Below are positions 5,700-53,947 of a stretch of DNA of 64,000 bases, piece after piece. The stretch's first letter is position 1, and each line of letters opens with the position of its first letter. The position numbers and the translations under genes were made by a program. Source of the stretch: an uncultured Alphaproteobacteria bacterium (GTDB taxonomy: Bacteria > Pseudomonadota > Alphaproteobacteria > RF32 > CAG-239); the NCBI GenBank assembly GCA_944393205.1, contig CALXZI010000001.1, forward strand, positions 5,725-69,724, read 5' to 3'. The notes beneath the pieces were generated by a model that ran no database searches, was not told the origin of the DNA, and was given only the letters and a program-made list of their open reading frames with translations.

Positions 5700-6239
5700 T
5701 TATTTCTTGTAAGGCAGGTTAAATGAAGTCAGCAAAAATTTCGCTTCTTCATCTGTCTTGGCCGATGTGCAAATAACAATATCCATTCCGCGAACATCTT
5801 CAACTTTTTCATAGTTGATTTCCGGAAAAATGACTTGTTCTTTAATACCAAAAGCAAAATTGCCTTTACCGTCAAAGTTTTTGCCCGATATGCCGTGAAA
5901 GTCTCTGATACGCGGCAAAGCCATGTTGATCAGTCTTTCCAAAAATTCATACATTCTGGTAGAGCGCAACGTCACTTTGCAGCCAATCGGCATACCTTCT
6001 CTCAACTTAAACGTGGCAATGGATTTGCGAGCCGTCGTCATCACCGGTTTCTGACCGGCAATCAAAGCCAACTCTTCCATAGCGTTGTTGAGCTTTTTCT
6101 TATCGGTAACGGCATCGCCGATACCCATGTTCAATACAATTTTCGTCAGCTTCGGAATCTCGTGTGGGTTCTTGTAACCGAATTTTTCCACAAGAGATTT
6201 CTTTATGACTTCATTGTAAAGTTTTTCAAAGTTTGTCAT
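5700..6239 (-). CDS. rplE: 50S ribosomal protein L5
   Basis: 179 aa, position between rplX and rpsN. Confidence 0.9.
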
Positions 6240-7396: not shown

Positions 7397-7824
7397 TATG
7401 CTTCTCCTTTATCCGAATTCAAGCGCTGAACAAATTTGCTTTTGACCGGCAATTTTGCAGCACCAAGGGCAAATGCTCTGCGAGCGGTTTCTTCATCAAT
7501 ACCTTCCGCCTCAAACATAATGCGACCCGGTTTTACTCTTGCAACCCAGAATTCAACAGCACCTTTACCTTTACCCATACGAACCTCGGCCGGTTTATCC
7601 GACACCGGAACATCAGGGAAAATTCTGATCCATAAACGGCCGGCTCTCTTCATCTCACGGGTAATTGCGCGACGGGCGGCCTCAATTTGGCGCGCCGTAA
7701 CGCGTTCCGGAGACAAAGCCTTCAGGCCGTATGTACCGAAACTCAATGTTGATCCGCCTTTGGCCAGACCGTGAATACGGCCTTTATGCTGTTTGCGGAA
7801 CTTCATACGTTTTGGACTTAACAT
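7396..7824 (-). CDS. rplP: 50S ribosomal protein L16
   Basis: [16 protein letters not shown] start. Confidence 0.9.
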
Positions 7825-7844
7825 CTTATTCTAACCTCACTATC

Positions 7845-8516
7845 TTATTTCTGTTCAGCCAGTTTTTTGTCCTGAGCCATCGGATCATGAGCCATAATTT
7901 CGCCCTTATAGATCCACACTTTAACGCCGCAAGCGCCATAAGTGGTATGCGCTGTAGAGGTAGCATAATCAATGTCCGCACGCAAAGTGTGCAAAGGCAC
8001 GCGACCTTCGCGGTAATATTCGGTACGAGCAATTTCAGCACCGCCCAAACGACCGCTGCAGCAAACTTTGATACCTTCTGCACCCAAACGCAGGGCAGAC
8101 TGCATCACGCGTTTCATCGCCCGACGGAAAGCAACGCGTCTTTCCAACTGTTGGGCAACCGAATCAGCCACCAATTTGGCATCCAACTCAGGTTTTCTGA
8201 CTTCCAGAATGTTCAACTGAACTTCCGAAGATGTCAGTTTCTGAATTTCTTTTCTCAAATTCTCAATGTCCTGACCTTTTTTGCCGATAACGACCCCCGG
8301 TCTGGCTGAATGAATAGTGACTCTGGCTTTTTTTGCCGGACGTTCAATCACGATGCGGCTAACGCCTGCCTGAGCCAATTTTTCCTTCAAGAATTCTTTA
8401 ATTTTCAAATCTTCGTGGAGATAGTCGGTAAACTTGTCATCATCAGCATACCAACGCGAGTCCCATGTGCGGTTAACGCCCAAACGAAGACTGGTAGGAT
8501 TTACTTTTTGTCCCAT
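7845..8516 (-). CDS. rpsC: 30S ribosomal protein S3
   Basis: [24 protein letters not shown] start. Confidence 0.95.
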
Positions 8517-8521
8517 CTCTT

Positions 8522-8896
8522 TTACTCCCCACGCTCGGTGACGACAACGGTCAGGCTGGAGAAAGGTTTCAACACCCGAGCCCCGCGCCCGCGACCGCGT
8601 GCGTGCATACGTTTCATAACTAAACCTTTACCGACAAAAGCTTCGCTGACAACGAGCTTATCAATATTCAGGTTATGGTTGTTTTCAGCATTGGCGATTG
8701 CTGATTGCAGCAAGCCCAATGCAACTTTAGCGATTCTCTTCTTTGAGAAAGAAAGCTCCGCAACGGCTTTTTCGGCCGACAGACCACGAATAGACTGGGC
8801 AACCAAGTTCAGTTTACGCGGGCTGGTGCGGATAGAGCGGCAAACGGCCATCGCCTGATTTTGAGCTACTCTTCTTGCATCTTTAGTTTTTCCCAT
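8522..8896 (-). CDS. rplV: 50S ribosomal protein L22
   Basis: 124 aa, position between rpsS and rpsC. Confidence 0.85.
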
Positions 8897-8898
8897 AA

Positions 8899-9177
8899 TT
8901 AACCTCTCTTCGCTGTCTTGTCTGCGGCGTGCCCGTAGAAAGTACGGGTCGGTGCAAATTCACCAAACTTGTGGCCGACCATATCCTCGGTAACCAAAAC
9001 CGGAATAAATTTGTGGCCGTTGTGAACGCCGAAAGTTAAACCTACGAACTGCGGCAACATCGTGGAACGACGTGACCAAATTTTAATCACCTCATTGCGA
9101 CCTGAAGCTCTGGCAGCGTCAGCTTTCTTAAGAAGATAACCATCAACAAAAGGTCCTTTCCAAACGGAACGTGTCAT
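8899..9177 (-). CDS. rpsS: 30S ribosomal protein S19
   Basis: [18 protein letters not shown] start. Confidence 0.95.
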
Positions 9178-9192
9178 TAGTTTTTCTCCTTA

Positions 9193-10026
9193 TTATTTCT
9201 TGTTATCATGACGTGATCTCATAATAAAGCGATCCGTCTTCTTGTTAGAACGAGTCTTGGCGCCCTTGGTCGGCTTACCCCACGGCGTAACCGGATGGCG
9301 GCCGCCGGAAGTTCTGCCCTCACCACCACCATGTGGGTGGTCAACCGGGTTCATCGCAACACCACGGACAACCGGTCTGATACCCAACCAACGAGAACGA
9401 CCAGCCTTACCGAGCGATTTGTTTTGATTGTCCGGATTGGAAACGGCACCAACCGTTGCCAGACATTCTTCACGGACGATTCTCAATTCACCGGAGCTCA
9501 ATTTTAATTGGGCATAACCGGCATCTTTACCGACAACTTGAGCGTAGCAACCGGCTGAACGAGCCAACTGGCCGCCCTTGCCTGCTTTCAACTCAACATT
9601 GTGAACAATCGTACCGACCGGCATACTCTTTAAAGGCATCGCATTGCCGGGTTTGATATCGGCTTTTGCTGAAGCAATAACCTTGTCGCCGACTTTCAAT
9701 CTTTGCGGAGCCAAAATATAAGCCAACATACCGTCATTATACTTAATTAAAGCAATGAAAGACGTACGGTTGGGATCATATTCAATCCGCTCAACTGTTG
9801 CTTCGCAGTCAAATTTATTGCGTTTAAAGTCGATAATTCTCAACTTGCGTTTATGTCCGCCGCCGATTCTCCGACTTGTAACATGTCCAAAATTATCACG
9901 CCCACCGGTCTTTGTCAAACCAACCGTTAATGTTTTTTCCGGCGCACCCTTGTACAGCTCACTTCTGTCAACAATAATCAGCTGACGAAGTCCCGGAGAT
10001 GTGGGCTTAAATGTTTTTAAAGCCAT
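9193..10026 (-). CDS. rplB: 50S ribosomal protein L2
   Basis: 277 aa, [13 protein letters not shown] motif. Confidence 0.95.
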
Positions 10027-10028
10027 GA

Positions 10029-10349
10029 CTAAATTCCTGTTGTAACATCAATGTTTTGACCATCAGCAAGCGTCACAACGGCTTTTTTATAATCAGAGCG
10101 AACGCCCTGACGGCCGCGGAATACTTTTACCTTGCCGAACTGACGAATGGTATTTACCTTATTTACCTTAACGTTGAAGATATTTTCAACGGCTGATTTG
10201 ACTTCATCTTTGGTCGCAGATAACGGCACCATAAAGGTAACCTTGCCGGCTTCTGATGAAACCATGGATTTTTCGGTAATTACCGGACGAACCAATGTAT
10301 CGTACATTTTTGCGGTAACATTGTTTGATTTCTTAAGATTTTTTACCAT
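10029..10349 (-). CDS. rplW: 50S ribosomal protein L23
   Basis: Start set to the internal MVKNLKK with a GAAGGAGAG RBS; the upstream ORF extension to 10370 overlaps the rplD end. Confidence 0.85.
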
Positions 10350-10975
10350 TTCAATCTCTCCTTCAAGCATTCAACCGCATCCGTGGTCAACACCAGTTTG
10401 TCTCTTCTCAAGATGTCATATACATTGGCACCGATTGTCGGCAGAACGTCAACGCCTGCGATATTGCGGCTGGCCAACGCAAAGTTTACATCTACTTCCT
10501 TGCCGTCAATGAACAAGCAGTTTTTCAAACCGCAAACATCCAACTTCGCTTTCAAGTCTTTTGTTTTCGGTGCTGACAACTTTGCTTGGTCAATAATAAC
10601 AAGGTTGCCCTCTTTGGCTTTCGCAGAGAGAGCCGTTTTCAAACCGAGTTTTCTGAATTTTTTGGTCAAATCGTGCGAATGGTCGCGGACAACCGGACCG
10701 AACACGATACCGCCCTTGCGGAACTGCGCTCCTTTACGGGAACCTTGACGCGCATTACCACTGCCTTTTTGCTTAAACGGCTTGGCCGGCGTCAAAGCAA
10801 CATCGGAACGTCCTTTGGTCTGGTGAGTACCAGCCTGCTGGCGGGCGAGTTGCCAAACAACAACACGGTGTAAAATATCAGCACGAACTTCAAGCCCGAA
10901 AATCGAGTCGTCAAGTTCAATTGTACCGACACTTTTATTATCTAAATTTAAGATGTCCTGTTTCATAATTTTCAA
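10343..10975 (-). CDS. rplD: 50S ribosomal protein L4
   Basis: 210 aa, position. Confidence 0.9.
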
Positions 10976-10986
10976 TCCTTACAATC

Positions 10987-11715
10987 TTATGCATTTTCAG
11001 CCGGAGCAACTTCTTCGGCTTTAACTGCAACAGGTTCATCAACTTTTTTCAATCCGGCCGGCATCGGCAGCTGCACATTGGCAGTTTTTTTCACGGCATC
11101 GGTAACGCGAACCCAAGTGTTTTCAGACCCCGGAACGGCACCTTTAACCATAATCAAACCTCTGGCAGCATCAATAGCAACAACTTTAAGGTTTTGCACG
11201 GTAACCCGTTCTGAACCCATATGTCCAGCCATTTTTTTGCCTTTGAACACTTTGCCGGGATCTTGTCTATTTCCCGTAGAACCGTGAGAACGGTGCGAAA
11301 CCGAAACGCCGTGCGTGGCCTCCAAACCGGCAAAGTTGTGGCGTTTCATAGCGCCGGCAAAACCCTTACCGATAGATGTGGCACAAACATCAACATACTG
11401 CCCCGGCACAAAGTGCTCAACCGACAGTTCGTTTCCGACCGAAAGCAGACAATCTTCAGAAACTCTGAACTCACCCAACTTTTTCTTCGGTTCAACATTG
11501 GCTTTTGCAAAATGTCCCTTCATCGGCTTGGATACATTTTTAGCCTTAACAGCGCCCGTCCCTAATTGAACGGCTGTATATCCATCCTTTTCCATCGTTT
11601 TAACGGCAACAACCTTCAACCCGTCTACACTTAAAACCGTAACCGGAACATGAACGCCGTTCGCCTCAAAAATGCGGGACATTCCCAATTTTTTTGCGAT
11701 CAGACCTGTACGCAT
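10987..11715 (-). CDS. rplC: 50S ribosomal protein L3 with an alphaproteobacterial-type C-terminal extension
   Basis: [16 protein letters not shown] start, 242 aa. Confidence 0.9.
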
Positions 11716-11782
11716 TATTATTTTTTCCTTTTCTAATTGGTTGACGCCTCATATTTCAAAACGCCAACATTAAAATTTATTA

Positions 11783-12094
11783 TTACAATTTAATCTCAAC
11801 ATTTACGCCGGCGGCCAAATCAAGCTTCATTAAAGCATCAACCGTCTGCGGTGTCGGATCTACAATATCCAGAAGTCTTTTGTGAGTACGGATTTCAAAC
11901 TGCTCGCGAGATTTTTTATCAACGTGCGGCGAACGGTTCACCGTAAACTTTTCAATTCTGGTCGGCAGAGGAATAGGCCCTCTGACGTTTGCCCCCGTTC
12001 TTTTGGCTGTATGCACAATCTCTTTTGTAGAAAGATCAAGCAAACGATGATCAAAAGCCTTGAGGCGAATTCTTATATTTTGGGTTTCCATCAT
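11783..12094 (-). CDS. rpsJ: 30S ribosomal protein S10, first gene of the S10 operon
   Basis: 103 aa, [14 protein letters not shown]...PLPTR. Confidence 0.95.
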
Positions 12095-12387
12095 ATTTTT
12101 ATTTTTCCCTATAACTAAACGGCAAAAGCCACCTTAACGGAACCTTGCCATTTAACTCGTTAAAACACTGACAAATCGTTCTATAGCAACGCTTTGCCCT
12201 ATATTTTATATTTAACATCACCGAGGTTTGTTAAAGACCCCGAACAAACGTTGTGAAGGGCTTATAACATAGCAAAACAAACTTTGCAAGCAAAAAATGC
12301 ACAAAAAATCAAAAAAAAGTTAACACCGCAAATCCTTGCTACGACTCTTATTGAGTCTCCCATCCGATTCACAGCATTAACCTTTTT

Positions 12388-12414
12388 GAGTCCAAAGAGT
12401 CCAATGAGTCCAAA
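12388..12414. repeat. 3x tandem 9-bp repeat GAGTCCAAW; three of the six clustered GANTC sites
   Basis: gagtccaaa gagtccaat gagtccaaa at 12388-12414. Further GANTC sites lie at 12343, 12353 and 12366. Confidence 0.8.
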
Positions 12415-12460
12415 AAACCGATGTTTCTCGTAAAAATATACCATAATATTATTTTTATTG

Positions 12461-12496
12461 CAAAACACGAAATTAAAGGTTGCATAATCTGTTTTT
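12461..12496 (+). promoter_or_regulatory. candidate sigma70-like promoter for the RHH gene (TTGCAA -17- TGCATAAT)
   Basis: ttgcaaaacacgaaattaaaggttgcataat, about 55 nt upstream of the ATG at 12551. Confidence 0.3.
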
Positions 12497-12550
12497 CTAT
12501 TATAAGTATATGCATATGTATTAATCAACTATTTGGAGAGGAACGCGCCA

Positions 12551-12844
12551 ATGACAAAGCTTGCCAACCGTGTTATTTCAATTTTTAATCGTAAAACCAG
12601 TATGCGTCTGGCCATGCCTGAATGGGATGCCGTGGATGATATTTGCCGCAGAGAAAACATTAAACGCAAACGGCTTTTTGAAATCATTGAAAACAACAAA
12701 GATCCCAAACTCGGTTTCACCTGTTCGGTACGCCTGTTTGCCATCACCTATATGCACAAACACCTGCCCAACTATCTTCCGAAACAGAAAAACGGCAAAA
12801 ACAATTATGAAGATATTTTTGAAACCATAAAATTTATGTCTTAA
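12551..12844 (+). CDS. ribbon-helix-helix (RHH_4-like) small protein
   Basis: Start at MTKLANR with a GGAGAGG RBS. The pattern S.RL...W.A...IC..E......L...I........L.SA.R.F.L matches the alphaproteobacterial RHH_4 family. Confidence 0.45.
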   Translation: MTKLANRVISIFNRKTSMRLAMPEWDAVDDICRRENIKRKRLFEIIENNKDPKLGFTCSVRLFAITYMHKHLPNYLPKQKNGKNNYEDIFETIKFMS

Positions 12845-12884
12845 CTCTTTAAATTGGCGAATCTGCGCATATATAGTACAATTA

Positions 12885-13343
12885 ATGAGGTTTATGATGA
12901 TAAGAGCAGTCACGTTAATGATTTTATATGCTTTTCCGGCGTTTGCCGAAACGCCCACAATTGTATACGGTGCCGCTGATACCGCCACAGGAAGCCAAAA
13001 TCAGTTTACGGTCGTCCAACCTGAAAATGCGCCCAATCCGCTGGGCAATCCAATCATAACCGTTCCCGATACGGCCACTGCTCATATGCCGCCACAGCCA
13101 ACGCCTGTAAATTCGGCAACGGAATCTGACCAAGCCGCGCCCTCTGATGCCATAAACCAAAGCGCCCTGCAAAATCCCGCACCTTTTTCAGAAAATCCCG
13201 AACAAGAGCAAAACCAAATCCAAAACACACTTTATCAAGGCGGCGACCGAATATACGATGTGCAGTCATTTCCAATAAACGATATTAAAACCATTACCGA
13301 ACCGAACATTCAGCCAACAATTACCACCTACCCTGAATATTGA
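12885..13343 (+). CDS. secreted Pro/Thr/Gln-rich hypothetical protein
   Basis: N-terminal signal peptide (MMIRAVTLMILYAFPAFA) followed by a low-complexity P/T/Q/N-rich body. Confidence 0.5.
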   Translation: MRFMMIRAVTLMILYAFPAFAETPTIVYGAADTATGSQNQFTVVQPENAPNPLGNPIITVPDTATAHMPPQPTPVNSATESDQAAPSDAINQSALQNPAPFSENPEQEQNQIQNTLYQGGDRIYDVQSFPINDIKTITEPNIQPTITTYPEY

Positions 13344-13352
13344 CACATACCG

Positions 13353-14099
13353 CTAAAGGCGTTCGTACTCAAAAAACACCGGCTTACGCCCTTCACGTAT
13401 TGCCTTTTTCTGGTACTTGGTCTCAACCCAATCTGCCGGCGGATTGCGCCAATCATCTGATTTTTTGGCCGTCCACGCAAAATCAGCATTATCACGCATT
13501 GTGTGCAAAACCCAATTTTTATATACTTTATGGTCGGTGGCAATTTGCAAAATACCGCCCGAACGTATAATTCGCGCCAGCTCTTTCAAATTTTCCGGAT
13601 TAACAAAACGTCGGGCGGCATGTCTTTTCTTTGGCCATGGATCAGGAAACAACAAATAAACCTTATCTATAAAACCATCGGGAATTTGCGGAAACAACAA
13701 TCGGGCATCATCATCAAAAACGCGTACATTATCACACCGTTCCGGCATAAGACAAATATTATCCGGAATATGATTGCCTTCCTTAACGCCTGTCAGTAAA
13801 TTAAGCAAATTAGCAACGCCGTTTTGAAAAACCTCAATCCCGATAAAGCCAACATTGGGTTTCATTAACGATAAACCGGCCAAATGCGCTCCATCGCCGA
13901 AACCAATTTCCAGACGTACTTCTTCAACCGGCTCGCCGAACATATTTCTTTTATCAAAAATCGTGTCCGATCCTATCCTGATTTTAGGTAAAAATTCTGC
14001 CAACAATGTACTTTTAGTCCGATGTAACACACGGCCTTTTCTTCTCCCGAAAAATTTCGGCGCGCTTTTCTGATTGATCAAAATTTGTGTTTGCTGCAT
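13353..14099 (-). CDS. trmB: tRNA (guanine-N7)-methyltransferase
   Basis: 248 aa, SAM-MTase motifs (IEIGFGDGAHL, LLFPDPWPKKRH). Confidence 0.8.
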   Translation of the reverse strand: MQQTQILINQKSAPKFFGRRKGRVLHRTKSTLLAEFLPKIRIGSDTIFDKRNMFGEPVEEVRLEIGFGDGAHLAGLSLMKPNVGFIGIEVFQNGVANLLNLLTGVKEGNHIPDNICLMPERCDNVRVFDDDARLLFPQIPDGFIDKVYLLFPDPWPKKRHAARRFVNPENLKELARIIRSGGILQIATDHKVYKNWVLHTMRDNADFAWTAKKSDDWRNPPADWVETKYQKKAIREGRKPVFFEYERL

Positions 14100-14163
14100 A
14101 AAAAAATTCCCGTTTTATACGATACGGGAATTTTTTATCTTAAAAATGACAAATAATCAAGAA

Positions 14164-14655
14164 TTATTCATCAGCCATCGTTGAATTTGATTTTGACATA
14201 CTGACAATCAAATCAAACAAATTTTTAGCGATTTTCCGATTTGAAATCCGATAATATGCCCGAACAAGTTCCAATGTTTCTTCTCTTTTCATCGGATCCA
14301 AATCCATATCATCAACATCTTCCGACAACATGCTGGCTTCTTCATTATCCGGCATCATCAACATCATCGGGCTTTGGCTCTCAACCGATTTATCCATATC
14401 TTCAAAAAAGAAGTCCATCGGTACTTTCAAAACCCTGCTGATATCCCACAACCGGCTGGCTCCAACGCGATTGCAACCTTTCTCATATTTCTGTACTTGT
14501 TGAAAAGTCAGCCCAAGTTTACGTGCCATAAACTGTTGGCTATATCCTAAAATGGTTCTCCGCAAACGAATTCTATTGCCGACATGAACATCCACCGGAT
14601 TAGGCACGCCGTCGGCCACTCTCCCGCGAATTGATTTTCCTTTTTTTAGTTCCAT
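14164..14655 (-). CDS. XRE-family helix-turn-helix protein
   Basis: HTH region RIRLRRTILGYSQQFMARKLGLTFQQVQKYEKG. Start set at the internal MELKKG with a GGGGGA RBS. Confidence 0.7.
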   Translation of the reverse strand: MELKKGKSIRGRVADGVPNPVDVHVGNRIRLRRTILGYSQQFMARKLGLTFQQVQKYEKGCNRVGASRLWDISRVLKVPMDFFFEDMDKSVESQSPMMLMMPDNEEASMLSEDVDDMDLDPMKREETLELVRAYYRISNRKIAKNLFDLIVSMSKSNSTMADE

Positions 14656-19061: not shown

Positions 19062-19223
19062 GCTTCTTTCTTTTTAACTTCATTTAATTTTTTATTATGC
19101 TATGCCAATCCTTAATATTTTTCAAACACTTTTTTAATTTTGCCGGCAATATCAAAAACTCTCTTTTTCTATTGAAAAAAACATAAATTTCTTTATGATG
19201 TGAATATTAAAAGGAGAAAAGAT

Positions 19224-19661
19224 ATGACTTACACTGAAAGCCTTAAGAACAACAGTCATTTTCTAAATTTAAATGAAGAACAAAAAATTATCTTTCTAAA
19301 AGCATTGGCCTATATGGCAAAAATTGATGGCCGCCTTAATGAGGATGAAATTAAATACATTAAAGACATTGCCGCCGAGTACCAAATTTCCCAATCTACC
19401 GAAATTTTTGATTTTAAAGAGGAAGAATTTTTCAATCAGATAAAAAAACTTAACAACCGCCGCATTTGTCTTGAACTTATCAAAGAACTATGTTTTCTGG
19501 GTCATTCCGACAGCGATTTATCCGATGAAGAGGTTTTGTTTATCGGCAAAATCGGCGCTGCCATGAACATCGGGCTTGAAAAAATAGAACAAATCAGCAA
19601 CTGGGTCGTTGATAAAATCATCTGGGAAGAACAGGGAAAACTTATTTTTGAGGAAGCTTAA
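19224..19661 (+). CDS. TerB-like domain protein
   Basis: Start at MTYTESL with an AAGGAG RBS. Two TerB-like segments (LAYMAKIDGRLNEDEIKYIKDIA and LCFLGHSDSDLSDEEVLFIGKIGAAM). Confidence 0.4.
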   Translation: MTYTESLKNNSHFLNLNEEQKIIFLKALAYMAKIDGRLNEDEIKYIKDIAAEYQISQSTEIFDFKEEEFFNQIKKLNNRRICLELIKELCFLGHSDSDLSDEEVLFIGKIGAAMNIGLEKIEQISNWVVDKIIWEEQGKLIFEEA

Positions 19662-22248: not shown

Positions 22249-22629
22249 ATGCCTGTTCTCGGTAAAATTTTTATCTTTGAAAATGTGCCCGAACATAACT
22301 CGGTAAAGGCTTTTTACAACGAGTTGGAAGCTTGGGGATTTTTAGTTTTCTGTACCGACAATCTGTATTGTTTTTTACAATATGCCGGTGAAATTAAACC
22401 GGATATTGTCATTTTGCATATACCGAATGACTTTCATCCCGACAAACAAACTTGGAAAATTGTTGAAGAAAGTTTATGCCGTAACAAATACCTGCAAATA
22501 TATGCCAACATACCATACAGATTTACGAACTATCCGAATTTTCATTACGTGAAATTCGGCACCGGTACCCTTAAAAAAGAGCAAATTTTAAGCATCATTA
22601 AAAAAAATCAAATAAAATATCTGCATTAA
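22249..22629 (+). CDS. degenerate receiver-like (pseudo-receiver) domain protein
   Basis: CheY-like layout, but the acidic pocket and phospho-acceptor positions are replaced (IFIFEN for ILIVDD; KPDIVILHIPND with His in place of Asp). Confidence 0.3.
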   Translation: MPVLGKIFIFENVPEHNSVKAFYNELEAWGFLVFCTDNLYCFLQYAGEIKPDIVILHIPNDFHPDKQTWKIVEESLCRNKYLQIYANIPYRFTNYPNFHYVKFGTGTLKKEQILSIIKKNQIKYLH

Positions 22630-23299: not shown

Positions 23300-23327
23300 C
23301 ACAATTATATGTTGCTCTAAAAAAAAC

Positions 23328-23363
23328 CGCCTATAAATCGGCGGTTTTTTTATCACTTGCGAT
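23328..23363. terminator. bidirectional rho-independent terminator between the DedA-like and Cys-rich genes
   Basis: CCGCC-tataaat-cGGCGG hairpin flanked by an A7 run and a T8 run. Confidence 0.6.
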
Positions 23364-23367
23364 ATAA

Positions 23368-24207
23368 TTAATTTGCTGACTGACAATAAATATAACTGCT
23401 GTCAAACGGGCATTTCAAACCGGTGTTTTTCCCTTGGCAGTTTCCGGCTTTAACATAACCCAGCTGCTCACAATCGGTTATAATCGCTTTTGTGACATCA
23501 CACCAATACGCCGCCAGATTTACATCGTCTTTCTCGCTACAGGTTTCCGCGCCGCAATGATAACAGTTATCAACACCATTATACACTTCTTCCAGTAAAG
23601 TCGTACAACCATCTGTACGGGATGAACATTCAACCGTTGTCCAATTATCATCGCAAATACAAAACGGATACCACTTTTCACCGTCTGAATCTTCACAATA
23701 CTCTACACCGCTGGGTTCTTTCAAGCCGGTTTCCTTACAGTCATAAGGATAAACCGTTTTAGAGCAGCTGCATTTTTCATACCAAATAACACCATCGGCC
23801 GGACTACGGCAAGATCCGCCACTACCGGTAGCGCCCACATAATCAGCGCAACCTTCGTAAGGAAAACGAGAGGTATTGCATATAGTTTCCGAACCGGCGC
23901 ATCCGCATTCCGGATCCAAGACACCGTTGCAAACATACTTACCGCCTTCCATATTAAGAACCCGATCACTGGCGCAAGTACAGCGATAATATGTCTTGCC
24001 TTTATAAGTACATGTTTGTTCTTGATATCCTTCCTCACAAGGCGTCGTTCGGGTGTAACCTTCGCAACCGACCATCCAGCTGGAATTATCCAAACATCCG
24101 TCGCCATTTAAAATTCCGGGTAAAAAACAAACTTTGGCCTCCGCGCCAGATACTGATACAATCAGTGTTAAAACAAAAAACATCAGGATTTTTACCGGTG
24201 TTCGCAT
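23368..24207 (-). CDS. secreted cysteine-rich protein (~34 Cys in 279 aa)
   Basis: Signal peptide MRTPVKILMFFVLTLIVSVSGAEA. Dense CxC/CxxC spacing throughout, no recognisable family. Confidence 0.55.
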   Translation of the reverse strand: MRTPVKILMFFVLTLIVSVSGAEAKVCFLPGILNGDGCLDNSSWMVGCEGYTRTTPCEEGYQEQTCTYKGKTYYRCTCASDRVLNMEGGKYVCNGVLDPECGCAGSETICNTSRFPYEGCADYVGATGSGGSCRSPADGVIWYEKCSCSKTVYPYDCKETGLKEPSGVEYCEDSDGEKWYPFCICDDNWTTVECSSRTDGCTTLLEEVYNGVDNCYHCGAETCSEKDDVNLAAYWCDVTKAIITDCEQLGYVKAGNCQGKNTGLKCPFDSSYIYCQSAN

Positions 24208-24312
24208 AACTTAAGTCCTTAAACCTCAAAAATTTTACCTAAATAAAGCGTATAACATAAAAACAAGAGCGTCAAGATTTTTCATTGATATTCAAAGCTC
24301 TCATTAATCATG

Positions 24313-24840
24313 TTATCCGTATTTTTCTTTCAGTTGATAAATATAATCAATCACATCTTCTCTGTCCCATTTTGCACTACCTCGGATACGGCCGATTTCT
24401 TGACCGCTTTCATTAATCAAAACAGTGTGCGGACTGCTGAATATGCCAAAATCAGAGGCGACAATGCCACGTTCATCCACATAAAAATCAACATCCGTTG
24501 CACCATAACGTTTTAAAAAGCGTTTTTGTTCGGCAACAGATGACCATTCTTCGTTTGGTGATATCAACAATAATTTAACGCCATAATCTTTGGTCGCATT
24601 ATGAAAGCCGTTCAAGCTTTTAAGTTCGCCGATACACGGACCGCAATCACGCGACCAAAAAACCGCCAGCACAAAATCGCCTTTAAAATCCGATAAGCTG
24701 TAGCGCTGACCGCTTTCATGAATGATTGTATGTCTCGGCACTTCACGCGGTTCGGCATATATATTAACACCTTCTTCGGCAAAAACCGGAAACACAAACA
24801 AAAACACCGAAAAGATTGTTTGAATAATAAGTTTCAACAT
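24313..24840 (-). CDS. periplasmic thioredoxin-like thiol:disulfide oxidoreductase (TlpA/ResA-like)
   Basis: Signal peptide plus WSRDCGPCIGE (CxxC in thioredoxin-fold context), 175 aa. Confidence 0.7.
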   Translation of the reverse strand: MLKLIIQTIFSVFLFVFPVFAEEGVNIYAEPREVPRHTIIHESGQRYSLSDFKGDFVLAVFWSRDCGPCIGELKSLNGFHNATKDYGVKLLLISPNEEWSSVAEQKRFLKRYGATDVDFYVDERGIVASDFGIFSSPHTVLINESGQEIGRIRGSAKWDREDVIDYIYQLKEKYG

Positions 24841-24930: not shown

Positions 24931-25065
24931 ATGAAATACATTTTCAAATTTTTTATTATCGCCGTCATTGTATTGACCATATGCGGGTTAGCAGCCTGCG
25001 GCAAAGTTTCTGACCCTGTGCCGCTTGAAGACAGCGGCTATCCGCACAGCTACCCGCGGCGTTAA
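24931..25065 (+). CDS. small lipoprotein (44 aa) immediately upstream of the vWA gene
   Basis: Hand-called ORF below the track threshold: MKYIFKFFIIAVIVLTICGLAACGKVSDPVPLEDSGYPHSYPRR. Lipobox LAAC, AAAGG RBS 8 nt upstream, stop 20 nt before the vWA start. Confidence 0.5.
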   Translation: MKYIFKFFIIAVIVLTICGLAACGKVSDPVPLEDSGYPHSYPRR

Positions 25066-25084
25066 AAATCAAAGGATGGTAAAA

Positions 25085-25771
25085 ATGGATGAACAGAAAA
25101 AAATTACCGATGAAACAATTCCTTATGTAGAATTTGCCGACAATGCAAACGAACGCACACCCTGTGTGTTGGTATTGGATTGTTCCGGTTCCATGCGCGG
25201 CGAACCGATAAAACAACTCAATGCCGGCTTAAGTGCTTTGGAAAAAGAATTAAAAGAAGATATTGATGCCAGCTCGCGCGTTCAACTCTTAATCATCAAA
25301 GCCTGTGGCAAAGATGAAGCCGTCATCAGTTCGGATTGGGTAGACGCCATGAACTTTACCGCACCGGTCATGGAAGCCGGTGGTTTGACACCTCTTGGTA
25401 AAGCCATGGAATTAGCTCTGCAAAAAATTGAAGAACAAAAATGTCTGTATGACAGCTGCGGTGTTACCTCCAAACGTCCGTGGATATTTTTAATCAGCGA
25501 TGGCGAACCGACGGATTACGGCTGGGAGCAAGCCGCCGAAAAATGCCGTTACGCCCAACAGAACAAAAAAGTAATTATTCATGCCGTCGGCACGCAAGGA
25601 GCCAATCTGGATAAATTAGCCAAATTTTCATTAATGTCGCCCAAACGCCTGACCGGCCTAAAATTTACCGAATTTTTCTTATGGTTAAGCCGTAGCGTTT
25701 CCTGCATTTCCAAAGCAGCACCCAACGCCGACGATTTACTTGAGGATATTGAAGACTGGAATGATGAATAA
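25085..25771 (+). CDS. von Willebrand factor A (TerY-like) protein
   Basis: MIDAS motif LDCSGSM, typical vWA length. Start at MDEQKK with an AAAGGATGG RBS. Confidence 0.75.
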   Translation: MDEQKKITDETIPYVEFADNANERTPCVLVLDCSGSMRGEPIKQLNAGLSALEKELKEDIDASSRVQLLIIKACGKDEAVISSDWVDAMNFTAPVMEAGGLTPLGKAMELALQKIEEQKCLYDSCGVTSKRPWIFLISDGEPTDYGWEQAAEKCRYAQQNKKVIIHAVGTQGANLDKLAKFSLMSPKRLTGLKFTEFFLWLSRSVSCISKAAPNADDLLEDIEDWNDE

Positions 25772-26510
25772 AAAACAAAATATGCACATTGTCGCCACCA
25801 GCGTGACCGGCCCGTACCATCGTGCCAAAAATTTGCCTTGTCAAGATTTTTATGCACATGCTTGCCGCGGTGATCGGTTGGTTGCTGTCGTGTCTGATGG
25901 AGCCGGTTCAGCCCGATACGGCAAAATTGGCGCCAAAACCGTATGCGATACCTTGTGCGATATTTTAATTTCAGGTTCCTTGCACAATGTGCGGCAAAAA
26001 GTAATTGATGCTTTGGAAGCGGCGCGGCAAAAACTGATATATCATCGTTTCAATAAATCTAAAAGTGAAAACGGGTTAATAGATTTTGCCGCCACGGTTG
26101 TCGGCACCGTATACACCAAAAAGGGCGGTTTGTTTTTTCATATCGGTGATGGCGCGGCCATTGCTTTAAATGATTCGCATCCGCATATTATTGTCTCTCG
26201 TCCCGAAAATGGTTTATTCTCATGCGAAACATATTTTTTTACCATGGACGATTGGAAAGACAGTTTGCGCTTTACTCCGTTTGATAAAGCAAATAGTCTG
26301 ATGCTAATGACTGACGGCGTTACCAGCTTTGCCTTTACCAAGGGATTTGACAATATTGAAAATGGTTTTGTTGAACCCATTAACCGTTTTTTGCATAGTG
26401 AAAGCAACCGCCGCAAAGCCGTTCGCGCGTTGAATAACACGCTTGATGCGCCACGTGCCTGTCATTTGAACCCTGATGACAAAACACTTTTATGGGTTGG
26501 CTTAAGATGA
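25761..26510 (+). CDS. PP2C-family Ser/Thr phosphatase
   Basis: PP2C-like motifs VVSDGAGSARYG, HIGDGAAIAL and LMTDGV. The start overlaps the vWA stop by 11 nt. Confidence 0.7.
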   Translation: MMNKKQNMHIVATSVTGPYHRAKNLPCQDFYAHACRGDRLVAVVSDGAGSARYGKIGAKTVCDTLCDILISGSLHNVRQKVIDALEAARQKLIYHRFNKSKSENGLIDFAATVVGTVYTKKGGLFFHIGDGAAIALNDSHPHIIVSRPENGLFSCETYFFTMDDWKDSLRFTPFDKANSLMLMTDGVTSFAFTKGFDNIENGFVEPINRFLHSESNRRKAVRALNNTLDAPRACHLNPDDKTLLWVGLR

Positions 26511-27967
26511 ACACACAAAATGCTATGACCGAACAAAATTTTTTATATTATAACGCCATATACGGTGACGGTCATTTTGAACGCGAAAAGCTGGGAGAAC
26601 TTTTAAACAAAGGCGGAGCCGCCGGTAAAATCTATCGCGACGTCAACCATCCGAAATTTGTTGCAAAAATTTTTCACGACCGCACCAAGAGCCATACCAA
26701 CCGCCAAAAATTAGAAGCAATGCTACACAATCGTCCCAACATTCCCCCGATTGAATACGATGGGAAAATGTATGTTCAGATTGCATGGCCGGAAGCCGTA
26801 TTGGAAGACGACGATGGTTTTTGTGTCGGTTATCTGATGCCGTTGATTAATATGGATGAAGCTGTTTCTTTAGACCATCTGATGCAAAAAGCTGTGCGCA
26901 AAAAACTCGGCCTTTCCGAAAGTTACAGCAATCGTTTATATGCGGCATACAATGTGGCTTCAATGGTGGCGGCATTGCACAAATGCGGGCATTACATTGT
27001 AGATTTAAAACCGGCAAACGTATCAGTTTACAAAGAAAATATGTTGGTGGCAATGTTTGATTGTGACGGCTTTTCCATCAAAGGTGAAAAAGGCCGTTAT
27101 CCGGCAGAATTTGTAAGCGAGGAATATATTTATCCCGAAGGTATGCGGCAAAATTGCGAAGATATGGGCGAAGAACAAGATAAATTTGCCTTGGCGGTAA
27201 TTATTTTCAAATTACTAAACAACGGCATCCACCCTTTTTCCGGCACACCGCGCAAAAACACCGAGATGCTTACCATTCAAACCCGCATAGAACAATATCA
27301 CTATGCCTATGGCCTGTGGCCAGATTCCTATCAGGCGCCCAACCCATACAGCATCCATCATTTCTTTGATAAAAAAACACTGGAACTGTTTGATCGGGCT
27401 TTTTTAAAAGGCCAAAAACGACCGGCAGCTAAAGAATGGCAAGCTCATCTGGAGTACCTTTTTCGCAATTTAAAAACCTGCAAACAAAATCCCGACCACA
27501 TTTACTTCACATCCAAAGGCTGTGGTTTATGTGCCATAGAAGAAAAATTTAAACAAAACATGGCCGCCGTCAAAGAAGAAAAAGCCATGCCGGTTAAAAT
27601 CCGTGGACTTGAAATCTCCGAACTTTCTACCGAAAAAAATGAACAGTTAAAACTGGAAAGACGTTTAAAATTCGTCAAACTTAATAAAGTTACATTAGCC
27701 GGCATAGTTTTTTATTTGTTTTTTTTCGGAAGCTTATCCTTTATTTTAAAACCGTTTCATAAACTTTTATCTTCCGGCGGATACGCTATACAACTGATTG
27801 TATGCGCCCTTGTCATCAAAGCTTTATATACGGCAGGAACATATTTGCAAAACAAATTACCCCTTTTGCAAAATCAAGCTTTGTTTAATATGCTCAAAAT
27901 TTATGCTTTAATTAATATCATCGTTGCTTTTATTATCTTAAATAATTTAACACTTTCCTCTTATTAA
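26507..27967 (+). CDS. Hanks-type Ser/Thr protein kinase with a C-terminal 3-TM anchor
   Basis: Gly loop GGAAGKIY, catalytic loop HYIVDLKPANV, DFG-like FDCDGF. Three C-terminal hydrophobic helices. ATGA start/stop overlap with the PP2C gene. Confidence 0.75.
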   Translation: MNTQNAMTEQNFLYYNAIYGDGHFEREKLGELLNKGGAAGKIYRDVNHPKFVAKIFHDRTKSHTNRQKLEAMLHNRPNIPPIEYDGKMYVQIAWPEAVLEDDDGFCVGYLMPLINMDEAVSLDHLMQKAVRKKLGLSESYSNRLYAAYNVASMVAALHKCGHYIVDLKPANVSVYKENMLVAMFDCDGFSIKGEKGRYPAEFVSEEYIYPEGMRQNCEDMGEEQDKFALAVIIFKLLNNGIHPFSGTPRKNTEMLTIQTRIEQYHYAYGLWPDSYQAPNPYSIHHFFDKKTLELFDRAFLKGQKRPAAKEWQAHLEYLFRNLKTCKQNPDHIYFTSKGCGLCAIEEKFKQNMAAVKEEKAMPVKIRGLEISELSTEKNEQLKLERRLKFVKLNKVTLAGIVFYLFFFGSLSFILKPFHKLLSSGGYAIQLIVCALVIKALYTAGTYLQNKLPLLQNQALFNMLKIYALINIIVAFIILNNLTLSSY

Positions 27968-28125: not shown

Positions 28126-29514
28126 TTGAAAAACCTAAATCCAATTCTTTTATCAGGTAAAGAAGTTCTGCCTCTGATTGAAGGCGGCAAAGGCATCAAC
28201 GGCAGTAACGGTTACAGCTCGGGCGCTTGGGCTAAAGAAAACTGCGTCGGAACTTTTTCGGCTGTCAGTCCCGATGTTGTTGACAACAAAGGCAACGTGA
28301 TTATTGAAACATTTAAGAAAAAAATCCGTGCTGAACGCCACGAAGAAATGGTGCAATACGCCATTCAAGGTGGTATAGATCAGGCAAAAATTGCCCATGA
28401 AGTTTCTGGTGGAAATGGACGTATCCACATGAACATGCTTTGGGAAATGGCCGATTCCGAACGTATAATCGCTGCAATTTTGGAAAGAAGCAAAGGGCTC
28501 ATTCATGGTGTAACTTGCGGTGCCGGTCTGCCTTATCATTTAGGCGAACTTGCTTCAAAATTCAAAGTTTATTATTACCCGATTGTTTCTTCGGCTCGCG
28601 CGTTTCAGGTTTTATGGAAACGGGCTTATTCTAAATGTTCGGAATATTTAGGCGGTGTGGTTTATGAAGATCCATGGTTGGCCGGTGGTCATAACGGTCT
28701 ATCCAATGCCGAAAATCCTATGCTCCCGCAAGCGCCCTACAACCGTTTGGTTGAGTTACGCAAACTTTTGCGCGAGCTGGGACTTGAAAAAACACCAATC
28801 ATTATTGCCGGAGGTGTCTGGAAATTAAGCGACTGGCAAGATTATATTGATAATCCCGAATTAGGCGACGTTGCATTCCAGTTCGGCACCCGTCCGATGA
28901 TAACCAAAGAAAGCCCGATAAGCGATGCATGGAAAAATGTAATGATGCATGTCAAAAAAGGCGATGTAATTTTACAAAAATTCAGCCCAACCGGCTTTTT
29001 CTCATCAGCCATAAAAAACACCTTTTTAGAAAAACTGATTGAACGTAAAAAAGGTGAAATCTCTTTCAAAAACGAACCGGATGCCGAATATTCACACGCA
29101 TTACAAATGAACGCACACCGTATGGTTTATATCAAGCCGGAAGATGCTGATAAAGCGCAAAATCAAATTAACGCCGGTTTAAGCGTCATTCAAGAAACCC
29201 CTGATCAAACAGTTGTATTTATGAGCGAAGAAGACTGGAAAAAGATGAAACAAGACCGCGCTGAATGTGTCGGTTGCTTATCACAATGTCAGTTTTCAAC
29301 ATGGTCACGCGCAAACGGCACCACCGGCAAACTGCCGGATCCGCGTACCTATTGTATTCATAAGACCCTTTATGAAGTCGGCCATGGCGGCAGCGTTAAA
29401 GACCACTTGTTGTTTGCCGGTCATCAGGTTTATCGTTTTGCCACTGACCCATTGTACCGCAACGGTATTCCGACGGTAAAAGAATTGATTGAAAAAATCA
29501 AAGTCGGTGAATAA
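28126..29514 (+). CDS. nitronate monooxygenase/FabK-like FMN-dependent oxidoreductase with a C-terminal extension
   Basis: TIM-barrel NMO-like motifs (GVTCGAGLPYHLGE, IIAGGVWKLSDW). TTG start with an AAGGAAAAAG RBS. Extra ~100 aa C-terminal with CVGCLSQC. Confidence 0.4.
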   Translation: MKNLNPILLSGKEVLPLIEGGKGINGSNGYSSGAWAKENCVGTFSAVSPDVVDNKGNVIIETFKKKIRAERHEEMVQYAIQGGIDQAKIAHEVSGGNGRIHMNMLWEMADSERIIAAILERSKGLIHGVTCGAGLPYHLGELASKFKVYYYPIVSSARAFQVLWKRAYSKCSEYLGGVVYEDPWLAGGHNGLSNAENPMLPQAPYNRLVELRKLLRELGLEKTPIIIAGGVWKLSDWQDYIDNPELGDVAFQFGTRPMITKESPISDAWKNVMMHVKKGDVILQKFSPTGFFSSAIKNTFLEKLIERKKGEISFKNEPDAEYSHALQMNAHRMVYIKPEDADKAQNQINAGLSVIQETPDQTVVFMSEEDWKKMKQDRAECVGCLSQCQFSTWSRANGTTGKLPDPRTYCIHKTLYEVGHGGSVKDHLLFAGHQVYRFATDPLYRNGIPTVKELIEKIKVGE

Positions 29515-52051: not shown

Positions 52052-53947
52052 ATGAAAAAACTTTTCTGTTTTGCGGCAAGCCTGCTGATGTTGGCATCTT
52101 GCCATTTAGAAGGCTATAACGCCAATCGCGGCCAACAGCCGGCGCCTGCTTATTATTCCGACTGGGATCGCGCCATTCGTATTGACGTTGATATGCAAAA
52201 TATGTACCTCAACACCCCACGCAAGATAGAGCGGCCGATTGATATGTACATGGCCATGGCTTTAGCCCTAAAATACAATTACACCCGCCGCATGATAAGC
52301 TATGAAGAAAACCTCTTAAAAGCCGGAAATTCCTCATTTGCCCAATTACAGGAAATTTTAAACAATGCCGGCTATATCAACACCAACAATTCCGCGCACT
52401 TAAGTCCCGACTTAAAAATTGCTTGGAATATTTTGGATTTATCCACCGTTTATTATCAAACAAGCGACCCCTCATTTAAGGCCAATGTTGCCTTTGAGCA
52501 AAGCCGCAAAGTTATCCACAACATCTTGCAGGAAACGCGTCTTTTATATTGGCAAACCCTGACCGCTCAACGTCTGTTGCCTGTCATTAATGACATGACC
52601 GAATACATGACCCTTGAAGTAGATGAAATGAATTCAGCCGCCCGCGAATTGGCTGCCAAAAACGAGTCTCCTTCGCGCGAGGCTTTGGTCAAAAAAAGAA
52701 AATATATGGAAGCGGTTAAAAATTTGTCTGCTTTGAAACACAATCTGGAGACAGCGCAAAACCGCATGGCAAGTTTAATGGGTTTTCACCCCTCCACGGA
52801 TTTCAAGCTTGTCGGTGCGCAATACGGCAACTTTGAATTGCCCGAAATCCGCTCCAATTTGAGCCAGTTGGAATGGTTGGCGCTGTCAAATCGTCCTGAA
52901 CTGCGCGTGCATGATCTGATTTCAAGCGCTGAAGATAAAGAGATCATCATCCGTCAATTTCGTGAGAAAAACCAAAACAAATACCAAAACAATCCGCGTT
53001 ATAATCGTCAATGGTCAAAACAAGGATGCGAAATCGGCATGAACGTCATTGAAGAAGTCCGCAAAGAAAACGCCGCAACATTAGAATCTTTGCGTCGCCA
53101 ACGCATGACTTCGTTAATTTTGAATCAGGTTTATGTTTCTTGGGCATTATACATGGCTGCGGTTGAAGATTATCAAATCAACATGGAAATTGCCGCAACG
53201 TCTGAAAACATCGCCGAAGATTACACAATTGCCGATGGCGCCAAAAACGAGCAAAGCCAGCTTGAAGCTGCGCGCGCCATTGAAGACGAAGTTAAAGCAT
53301 TTTCTTCCTACGTAGACGTACAAGAAGCGTTAGGCAATATGTATGCCACCATTGGTTTGGACGCCCTGCCGTATTATATGTTGGGTGAAAAACCGTCAAA
53401 AATCGCATTGTATCTGCGTGCCACCATGGAAAAGTGGAACGAAGGCAAATTTTTGCCCGACAATCGTCCGTATCTGATGAACATACCGTCAAAACGGCCG
53501 CCGGTTAACCTATCTTCATCAACCGTACTGCCTGATGTGGTGGTTGAAACCGGTCAACCAATACACATCAACGTACCGTTAGACTTATTTGAAAAACTCG
53601 GTTGGAAAGGCAAAGTAAAAACACGCGCCGGCTTGATTGATGACAGTCGCTTGCCCAAATGGCTTCATTATGATGAAAACAGTTGGGTTTTCAGTGGCAA
53701 AGCCATGCCCAAAGACGGTGGTGTTTATCACATAAAGATATATGGCGTGGACGACAGCGGCAACGTGGCGTATGCCACATTCAAACTGACCGTGCGTGAG
53801 GTTTATGTTCCATCGCTGCGTTTGCGCGGTCTGACCGATGGACGCAAGGCGACCGTCCTAAAACGTTGCCATGGCGCCAACTGTAAAGATGCCTACATCA
53901 ACCCAGATGACTTGGGCAAAGAAGTGGAAAAAGCACCCACTTTCTAA
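52052..53947 (+). CDS. outer-membrane efflux factor (TolC/OMF-like) lipoprotein with a C-terminal Ig-like extension
   Basis: Lipobox LMLASC. OMF-like heptad segments (LYWQTLTAQRLL, LALSNRPELR). A C-terminal ~150 aa beta-rich region resembles a putative Ig/cadherin-like domain. Confidence 0.4.
   Translation: MKKLFCFAASLLMLASCHLEGYNANRGQQPAPAYYSDWDRAIRIDVDMQNMYLNTPRKIERPIDMYMAMALALKYNYTRRMISYEENLLKAGNSSFAQLQEILNNAGYINTNNSAHLSPDLKIAWNILDLSTVYYQTSDPSFKANVAFEQSRKVIHNILQETRLLYWQTLTAQRLLPVINDMTEYMTLEVDEMNSAARELAAKNESPSREALVKKRKYMEAVKNLSALKHNLETAQNRMASLMGFHPSTDFKLVGAQYGNFELPEIRSNLSQLEWLALSNRPELRVHDLISSAEDKEIIIRQFREKNQNKYQNNPRYNRQWSKQGCEIGMNVIEEVRKENAATLESLRRQRMTSLILNQVYVSWALYMAAVEDYQINMEIAATSENIAEDYTIADGAKNEQSQLEAARAIEDEVKAFSSYVDVQEALGNMYATIGLDALPYYMLGEKPSKIALYLRATMEKWNEGKFLPDNRPYLMNIPSKRPPVNLSSSTVLPDVVVETGQPIHINVPLDLFEKLGWKGKVKTRAGLIDDSRLPKWLHYDENSWVFSGKAMPKDGGVYHIKIYGVDDSGNVAYATFKLTVREVYVPSLRLRGLTDGRKATVLKRCHGANCKDAYINPDDLGKEVEKAPTF

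Follow-up and report, generated by a model that had tools for sequence, protein, structure and literature searches.

A cysteine-rich exported protein of an uncultured alphaproteobacterium and its modular family

Cysteine is normally scarce in the proteins that bacteria export, and a gene within a 64,000-nucleotide stretch of DNA from an uncultured alphaproteobacterium (positions 5,725 to 69,724 of contig CALXZI010000001.1, assembly GCA_944393205.1; hereafter the window) raises the question of what an exported protein with 29 cysteines might be, and whether the thioredoxin-fold protein encoded just upstream is its dedicated partner. The gene is located at 23368–24207 on the minus strand, begins with ATG and encodes a product of 279 amino acids. 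The explanation that we favour, with moderate confidence, is that this protein is a Sec-exported, disulfide-knotted scaffold that consists of the N-module alone, and that it is the smallest representative of a modular, lineage-specific family whose extracytoplasmic members are found in gut and rumen Alphaproteobacteria.

The cysteine-rich protein and its family

The first 24 residues (24136–24207; this and the other parts of the protein are all on the minus strand) constitute a predicted signal peptide, MRTPVKILMFFVLTLIVSVSGAEA followed by KVC, with positive charges at R2 and K6 in the n-region, a hydrophobic core and an AxA signal peptidase I site; the AxA/K cleavage site is present in all homologues. 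The predicted mature N-terminus, KVCFLPG (residues 25–31, 24115–24135), is conserved across the superfamily more strongly than any other linear motif. It is followed by a core module of cysteine-rich beta-hairpins (residues 48–222, 23542–24066), delimited by structure prediction, which holds 21 cysteines and includes three copies of a C-x(3-6)-G-x(2,3)-[YW]Y-x2-C-x-C hairpin motif, and then by a C-terminal mini-domain with four cysteines (residues 236–275, CDVTKAIITDCEQLGYVKAGNCQGKNTGLKCPFDSSYIYC; 23383–23502), to which we refer as LGY-CPFD. The open reading frame ends four residues past the last cysteine of this module, and a strong terminator lies directly after it.

A preliminary description of this locus reported a signal peptide-bearing protein of 279 amino acids with about 34 cysteines (~12%) in CxC, CxxC and CC arrangements. 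The open reading frame and its AEA/K signal peptidase I site are confirmed. The cysteine count is lower than reported, at 29 (10.4% with the signal peptide included, and 11.4% over the 255 residues of the mature chain), and the arrangements comprise four CxC (76/78, 101/103, 146/148 and 183/185) and one CxxC (215/218) motifs, with no instance of CC. The density is nonetheless unusual, as had been proposed: among window open reading frames of at least 150 amino acids this is the most cysteine-rich, the next having 5.8% and typical genes 3% or less, and all 29 cysteines are invariant across 14 homologues. The gaps between cysteines are mostly of 7–15 residues, 30 residues are aromatic, and the single histidine, which is not conserved, stands beside the sole CxxC. 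Two other readings of these cysteines were rejected. A lipoprotein is rejected because there is no lipobox (tested as [LVI][ASTVI][GAS]C where the signal peptide ends): C27 follows A-K-V, in which −2 is charged and −1 is valine, and the AxA site precedes it. Binding of haem or an iron-sulfur cluster was also rejected, CxxCH being absent and the only histidine non-conserved.

Relatives of the protein were sought at several depths. A word-indexed search of 5.8 billion proteins returned only four clusters and a profile search of the same set ten, and 1.84 billion representatives searched exhaustively with HMMER yielded 110 matches at E ≤ 0.001, among them 37 clusters at E ≤ 1e-30. Scanning one genome per species identified 16 loci, nearly all labelled as uncultured Alphaproteobacteria, and the sources are metagenome-assembled genomes from human gut, rumen, reindeer and other animal metagenomes. 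We define the family by a signal peptide, [KR][VI]CFLP and all 29 aligned cysteines; the 279-residue protein has each of these and is the first sequence of all of our family alignments. In the 14-sequence alignment, with identities of 36–67%, the residues A24 K25 V26 C27 F28 L29 P30 are invariant along with the cysteines, whereas other positions diverge. Short forms of 274–288 amino acids, each with exactly 29 cysteines, are found in at least eight independent clusters at 50% identity; the cysteine number is odd in all eight of these and in most long forms, and even in a distant subfamily. The identical 279-residue protein is present on 19 public contigs, across which only single-residue variants occur. 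These contigs were fetched by the exact protein, so that a comparison of within-population variation would be circular and it was not used.

Scans of the cysteine-rich protein with Pfam, NCBIfam and PADLOC gave no match, literature searches for such cysteine-rich proteins returned nothing relevant, and no source searched has a name for any family member. A known metallothionein-like or lipoprotein family that could explain the cysteine content was also sought, and none matched. The earlier statement that the protein belongs to no recognisable family is borne out in this sense, and homologues do exist, all of them unnamed. Roughly 50 representative clusters make up the family with KVCFLPG and the 29-cysteine N-module, which appears from its sequences to be undescribed, taxonomically narrow, exported and cysteine-rich, with the 279-residue protein as its shortest or minimal architecture.

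The gene combines a frozen cysteine skeleton with free surface residues and is among the fastest-evolving genes of its neighbourhood. Against three close genomes, nonsynonymous divergence (dN) is 0.23–0.38 for the cysteine-rich gene, 0.13–0.17 for the thioredoxin gene, 0.14–0.19 for FolD, 0.08–0.12 for a PP2C phosphatase gene, and 0.02–0.05 for the VWA and DedA genes. An open reading frame of 126 amino acids located between FolD and DedA (22249–22629, plus strand) matches no Pfam or NCBIfam family and keeps its place in all close relatives; its dN is 0.31–0.32, exceeding that of the cysteine-rich gene against locus L001 (0.31 vs 0.23). Synonymous sites are saturated (synonymous divergence, pS, of 0.6–0.8), so only dN is informative and we do not claim positive selection.

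AlphaFold2 models of the protein have a mean predicted local distance difference test score (pLDDT) of 71.8 with 10 sequences and 82.0 with 33 sequences. In the latter, residues 51–220 score 85–98 and are almost all in beta-hairpins, with lower values for residues 25–50 (51–64), residues 221–250 (61–66) and residues 251–279 in the mini-domain (72–79). With Foldseek, the best E in the PDB was 0.57, the insignificant top matches being Pvs25/Pfs25 and the cysteine-rich region of an Entamoeba lectin, and a sequence-profile search of the PDB gave only a chance match (E 0.45). The preliminary description had suggested predicting the structure and searching for eukaryote-like cysteine-rich domains; the first gives a confident all-beta core with no fold relative in the PDB, and the second gives no profile or fold match to EGF, furin-like, Giardia VSP or TNFR repeats. 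The family thus lacks a name, a Pfam or NCBIfam model and any detectable relative by fold.

Modularity and the LGY-CPFD mini-domain

Members of the family vary in length from 274 to 2,907 amino acids, the longest carrying about 290 cysteines, and this modularity was missed in the preliminary description. All share the signal peptide, KVCFLPG and the 29-cysteine N-module of ~255 residues, and differ in the extensions that follow. The 279-residue protein is a bare N-module, and its nearest relatives have 398, 443, 613 and 636 amino acids; the extensions differ completely between close species even though the neighbouring proteins are 73–96% identical. Four giant members are encoded at 7580–14392 of locus L012 (2,270 amino acids, 225 cysteines), 7995–16703 of L013 (2,902 amino acids, 287 cysteines), 7995–12803 of L014 (1,602 amino acids) and 7995–11210 of L015 (1,071 amino acids). 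Each has between 96 and 287 cysteines, with internal repeats of the form C-P-x-G-Y...C-G-x-G...G-W...C-Y-x-C-x-A-K-x-C. A Pfam scan of seven long relatives, including those of 2,270 and 2,902 amino acids, gave sub-threshold matches only. At this level the extension of L005 is weakly Lcl_C/DUF1566-like, and the C-terminal region of P0026/27 is comparable to it by alignment only; the 279-residue protein has no match to Lcl_C/DUF1566 (PF07603) at E ≤ 0.1.

The N-terminal motif is also found in other company. In L016 (3239–5317) and in P0073 the same signal and an AKVCFLPN motif precede entirely different cysteine-rich modules, and the [KR][VI]CFL pattern is kept in both of these in spite of the different downstream modules, as it is in a distant 'RICFLGD' subfamily. 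Because L016 and P0073 join the N-terminal heptapeptide to different modules, the alignments suggest that it is a separable, possibly targeting, element. A different kind of variation is seen in L010, where the cysteine-rich gene is a single open reading frame of 663 amino acids (7998–9989), and in the near-identical L034 (4630–6621), where it is split into 538 and 115 amino acids; the split may reflect a frameshift, a nonsense variant or a mistake in assembly. The short form itself would be a stable architecture and not debris, because the bare N-module recurs with exactly 29 cysteines in the independent clusters described above.

The mini-domain extends beyond the family. About 55 representative clusters of small secreted proteins (~250 amino acids) match only the mini-domain part of the family profile, and a hidden Markov model (HMM) built from 56 mini-domain copies of those proteins matches residues 244–275 of the 279-residue protein (41.2 bits, E 7e-9) and no other open reading frame of the window. 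The sharing is shown by these reciprocal HMM tests, and the common pattern of 36–40 residues is C-x(2-4)-P-x-C-x2-LGY-x(4-8)-C-x(4-8)-KCPFD-x5-C. The small proteins resemble the 279-residue protein in carrying the mini-domain and a Sec export signal, but in them the mini-domain is N-terminal and both KVCFLPG and the 21-cysteine core are absent. In five of seven that were scanned against Pfam, a weak, sub-threshold Lcl_C/DUF1566 domain follows the mini-domain, and several of these proteins therefore end in a weakly lectin-like domain that the 279-residue protein does not have. The mini-domain is described in neither Pfam nor NCBIfam, and it appears to be a second undescribed module, more widespread than the cysteine-rich family.

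Transcription and the thioredoxin neighbour

A putative sigma-70-type promoter is located upstream of the cysteine-rich gene at 24247–24275 on the minus strand, with a −35 element TTGACG (24275–24270), a 17-nucleotide spacer and a −10 element TACGCT (24252–24247), and the sequence includes a candidate ribosome-binding site AAGGA (24216–24220, minus strand) 8 nucleotides before the ATG. The motif CTTGACG-N17-TA(C/T)NCT (N = A/T/G) is kept in the intergenic region between the thioredoxin and cysteine-rich genes in 10 syntenic loci. The motif likewise precedes the cysteine-rich gene in L008 and in L012–L015, the last four of which have no thioredoxin gene upstream; it is kept at every related locus with a canonical N-module and is not present in the divergent L016. 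We infer that TTGACG-N17-TACGCT acts as the promoter of the cysteine-rich gene.

Beyond the 3' end of the gene is an intrinsic terminator, A7-CCGCC-N8-GGCGG-T8 (23319–23351), which serves both strands and is common to the convergent DedA/VTT gene. The hairpin has a predicted folding energy of −18.3 kcal/mol on the minus strand and −17.2 on the plus strand (z = −4.5 and −4.9), and none of 200 shuffled sequences was as stable, in agreement with the bidirectional terminator described previously. The 105-nucleotide spacer between the thioredoxin and cysteine-rich genes contains the promoter motif and AAGGA, and no terminator was found in it, so transcripts could read through. Of the earlier proposal that the gene is monocistronic, its own conserved promoter and terminator remain, but nothing stops transcripts entering from the thioredoxin gene. 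Overall, these elements support the cysteine-rich gene as its own transcription unit.

The upstream gene (24313–24840, minus strand) encodes a predicted exported TlpA/ResA-like thioredoxin-fold protein of 175 amino acids, with WSRDCGPC at residues 62–69 and CGPC at residues 66–69 (24634–24645); in strand, position and motif it is as first described. Its N-terminus, MLKLIIQTIFSVFLFVFPVFA followed by EE, was judged by eye to be an export signal. Pfam matches to Redoxin (E 2.9e-14) and AhpC-TSA (E 7.7e-14) are both above gathering scores, and sequence matches in the PDB are to TlpA (1jfu, E 1.4e-10) and ResA. The NCBIfam scores of 60.9 bits for TlpA (cut-off 230) and 52.6 bits for ResA (cut-off 170) fall short of orthology to TlpA or ResA proper. 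It shares with the TlpA, ResA and CcmG reductants a redoxin fold, an N-terminal export signal or anchor and a CxxC site, and differs from them in having a classical CGPC and in its genomic partner, which is a VWA-PP2C-kinase operon and not cytochrome or copper genes.

The preliminary description proposed this thioredoxin as a possible dedicated oxidoreductase partner; its main task would then be to fold, isomerise or keep reduced the cysteine-rich protein, with the two genes constituting one module. The genes are on the same strand, 105 nucleotides apart and with no terminator between them, and the order of thioredoxin then cysteine-rich gene is kept in 17 loci (the window, L001–L011, L017, L018, L027, L034 and L035, of which L017, L018, L027 and L035 are contexts fetched by exact protein), down to 34–35% identity of the cysteine-rich protein. 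The downstream neighbour changes at least five times among these loci (DedA, an LpxA-like acyltransferase, Elm1-like, a sulfatase and L31), and the pair therefore outlasts local rearrangement. The linkage is not universal, however, as no thioredoxin gene is present within the 5–8 kb fetched on each side of the giants L012–L015, of the motif-only protein L016, or of the distant 'RICFLGD' subfamily (L025/26). Conversely, thioredoxin orthologues at 49–55% identity (P0200, P0258 and P0271) keep the same place, divergent from a block of micro-lipoprotein, VWA, PP2C, kinase and NMO-like genes, and the gene downstream of them encodes a phosphoribosyltransferase or a T2SSE-type ATPase and not a cysteine-rich protein. 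The thioredoxin is found in 113 clusters, making it far more widespread than the cysteine-rich family, it evolves two to three times more slowly with no sign of co-variation between the two proteins, and the promoter of the cysteine-rich gene is conserved with or without it. These comparisons point to a thioredoxin anchored to the VWA-PP2C-kinase block and not to the cysteine-rich gene. Because distant and giant members have none nearby and its orthologues occur without the cysteine-rich gene, it appears to be a frequent, long-standing neighbour and not a dedicated partner, and we consider a dedicated pair unlikely. The co-conservation that had been proposed as a check on such a pair is thus seen in 17 loci but fails elsewhere. 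It is plausible that a CGPC reductant in this position helps to reshuffle the disulfides of the cysteine-rich protein.

The block divergent from the thioredoxin gene begins with an open reading frame of 44 amino acids (24931–25065, plus strand), MKYIFKFFIIAVIVLTICGLAAC followed by GKVSDPVPLEDSGYPHSYPRR, which has a canonical L-A-A-C lipobox and a near-invariant C-terminal SGYPHxYPR. In all related loci that extend over this region, the micro-lipoprotein (39–70% identity) is encoded first in the VWA-PP2C-kinase operon, and because its conserved reading frame occupies 24931–25065, the VWA gene probably starts near 25067 and not at the TTG at 25025. The VWA, PP2C phosphatase and Ser/Thr kinase genes (25025–27967, plus strand) overlap in a TerY-P-like triad order, the TerY-P triad having been described previously (PMC10542128). 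An NMO-like gene follows the block and a TerB-domain open reading frame lies 5 kb away (further coordinates 28126–29514 and 19200–19661); PADLOC applied to the window made no defence-system assignment for the VWA-PP2C-kinase block.

Elsewhere in the window, a 520-bp unit is tandemly triplicated at 32347–33896 (plus strand), giving three paralogous open reading frames of 165, 176 and 176 amino acids with no Pfam family, the repeat cores being 90–95% identical to the reference copy. A protein of 631 amino acids (52052–53947, plus strand) has an N-terminus resembling a lipobox (LLMLASC), together with a He_PIG putative Ig domain, and is a probable further surface protein. An Rfam scan of the window found nothing.

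Function and comparison with known systems

Under the scaffold explanation, the cysteine-rich gene would be expressed from a conserved sigma-70-type promoter of its own, and its product would leave the cytoplasm through Sec, with cleavage at AEA/K giving KVCFLPG as the mature N-terminus. Oxidative folding in the periplasm would then produce stacked small beta-hairpin modules with up to 14 disulfides, one of the 29 cysteines being left unpaired or free for an intermolecular link. The product would be a protease-resistant scaffold whose non-cysteine surface evolves fast, and the N-module would be the constant, possibly anchoring or targeting, part to which relatives add variable extensions. As these relatives carry cysteine-rich arrays or weakly Lcl_C/DUF1566-like domains, the most likely role of the family is extracytoplasmic, in binding or in interactions at the surface. 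The TlpA/ResA-like thioredoxin with CGPC from the adjacent gene would be a general periplasmic thiol reductant, which may reshuffle wrong disulfides. An outer membrane is indicated by a FadL-type outer-membrane protein at 59376–60587, and the cysteine-rich protein would therefore be periplasmic unless some secretion system moves it on.

Several observations weigh against this explanation. The disulfides are deduced, and since 29 is odd, at least one cysteine must be outside intramolecular disulfides. No secretion or anchoring system was identified, and the final location may be the periplasm, the surface or the medium. The binding role is drawn from extensions and lectin-like domains that the 279-residue protein does not have, and the Lcl_C match in the relatives is itself weak, at 27.2 bits against a Pfam cut-off of 34.9. 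Finally, inspection of CxxC motifs, as distinct from an HMM search, revealed no candidates for DsbA, DsbB, DsbD or CcdA among the window open reading frames, and with this and an anoxic habitat the oxidant for 14 disulfides is unexplained.

The unpaired cysteine could have a different significance if the protein resides in the periplasm and stiffens the envelope through intermolecular disulfide cross-links, functionally like chlamydial OmcA/OmcB. The signal peptidase I signal, beyond which no other secretion signal is recognisable, the presence of an outer membrane, the odd cysteine number in all eight short forms and most long forms, and the invariant N-terminal cysteine motif are all consistent with this. 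Even cysteine numbers in the distant subfamily are not, and fast divergence would be unusual for a structural envelope component. There is also no Pfam match to the chlamydial families, and the extreme plasticity of length and domains, together with the lectin-like C-terminal domains of relatives, fits exposed binding proteins better. We regard envelope cross-linking as rather improbable.

TlpA-type proteins service copper sites in other Alphaproteobacteria, and a thiolate metal-binding or storage protein, metallothionein-like or copper-storage-like, with its cysteines kept reduced by the CGPC thioredoxin, was therefore weighed as well. High cysteine content, four CxC motifs, an adjoining reductant-type thioredoxin and an anoxic habitat would suit such a role. 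Yet a metallothionein-type protein would have at least 15–30% clustered cysteine, few or no aromatic residues and an HMM match, and here cysteine is only 10%, there is no match to a metallothionein or Csp family, and a confident all-beta fold is predicted without metal. Relatives of 2,900 amino acids with ~290 cysteines are moreover implausible as stores. The spacing of 7–15 residues between cysteines, the 30 aromatic residues and the single non-conserved histidine argue for the composition of a disulfide-rich fold and not of a thiolate cluster, making a metal store very improbable and extensive disulfide bonding the most plausible use of these cysteines. That the 279-residue reading frame is a decayed remnant of a longer adhesin-like gene with little function of its own is hardly credible, for although the closest species have versions of 398–636 amino acids and one relative (L034) has a split gene, the frame closes just after its last module and before a strong terminator, neither its promoter nor its ribosome-binding site is damaged, the same short form recurs in at least eight independent clusters, and the 19 contigs differ by single residues only.

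Returning to a disulfide-knotted scaffold, we compared it with known proteins that have unusually many cysteines and are exported or bind metal. Chlamydial OmcA/OmcB, the Sel1-like Hcp of Helicobacter, bacterial metallothioneins and Csp have no sequence match to the cysteine-rich protein; Hcp and Csp are helical whereas the cysteine-rich protein is predicted to be all-beta, and its cysteine density and spacing are unlike those of metallothioneins. Legionella Lcl is an extracellular glycosaminoglycan-binding adhesin (PMC11162425), and proteins with DUF1566 are diversified binding proteins exposed at the surface (PMC5758913). The likeness to these is in the weakly Lcl_C-like domain with which L005 ends (and P0026/27 by alignment only), but Lcl is collagen-like, and the 279-residue protein has neither an Lcl_C domain nor collagen repeats. 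A conserved family with ~10% cysteine that reaches 2,900 residues is unusual, in bacteria of the anaerobic gut that have never been cultured, and it raises the questions of how 14 to about 140 disulfides form in such organisms and what these proteins bind. Defining the family and the mini-domain would annotate roughly 50 family clusters and about 55 clusters with the mini-domain only.

Similarity in character extends to protozoan proteins. The VSPs of Giardia, the heavy chain of the Entamoeba Gal/GalNAc lectin and Plasmodium Pfs25/Pvs25 have ~10–12% cysteine, as does this family, and the likeness to these protozoan cysteine-rich surface proteins includes large variation in size and would extend to tandem small disulfide modules, an extracellular position and a protease-rich habitat. 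As a tentative proposal, which we hold with less confidence than the scaffold itself, the family could be to bacteria what cysteine-rich surface coats are to intestinal protozoa. Anchoring or targeting would fall to the constant N-module, with KVCFLPG and one free cysteine, while hypervariable arrays (up to ~2,900 amino acids and 290 cysteines) or lectin-like heads would bind host, mucus or particles and resist proteases. The N-module fold and the mini-domain would then be new structural families, and the 279-residue protein would be the anchor module of such a coat, standing free.

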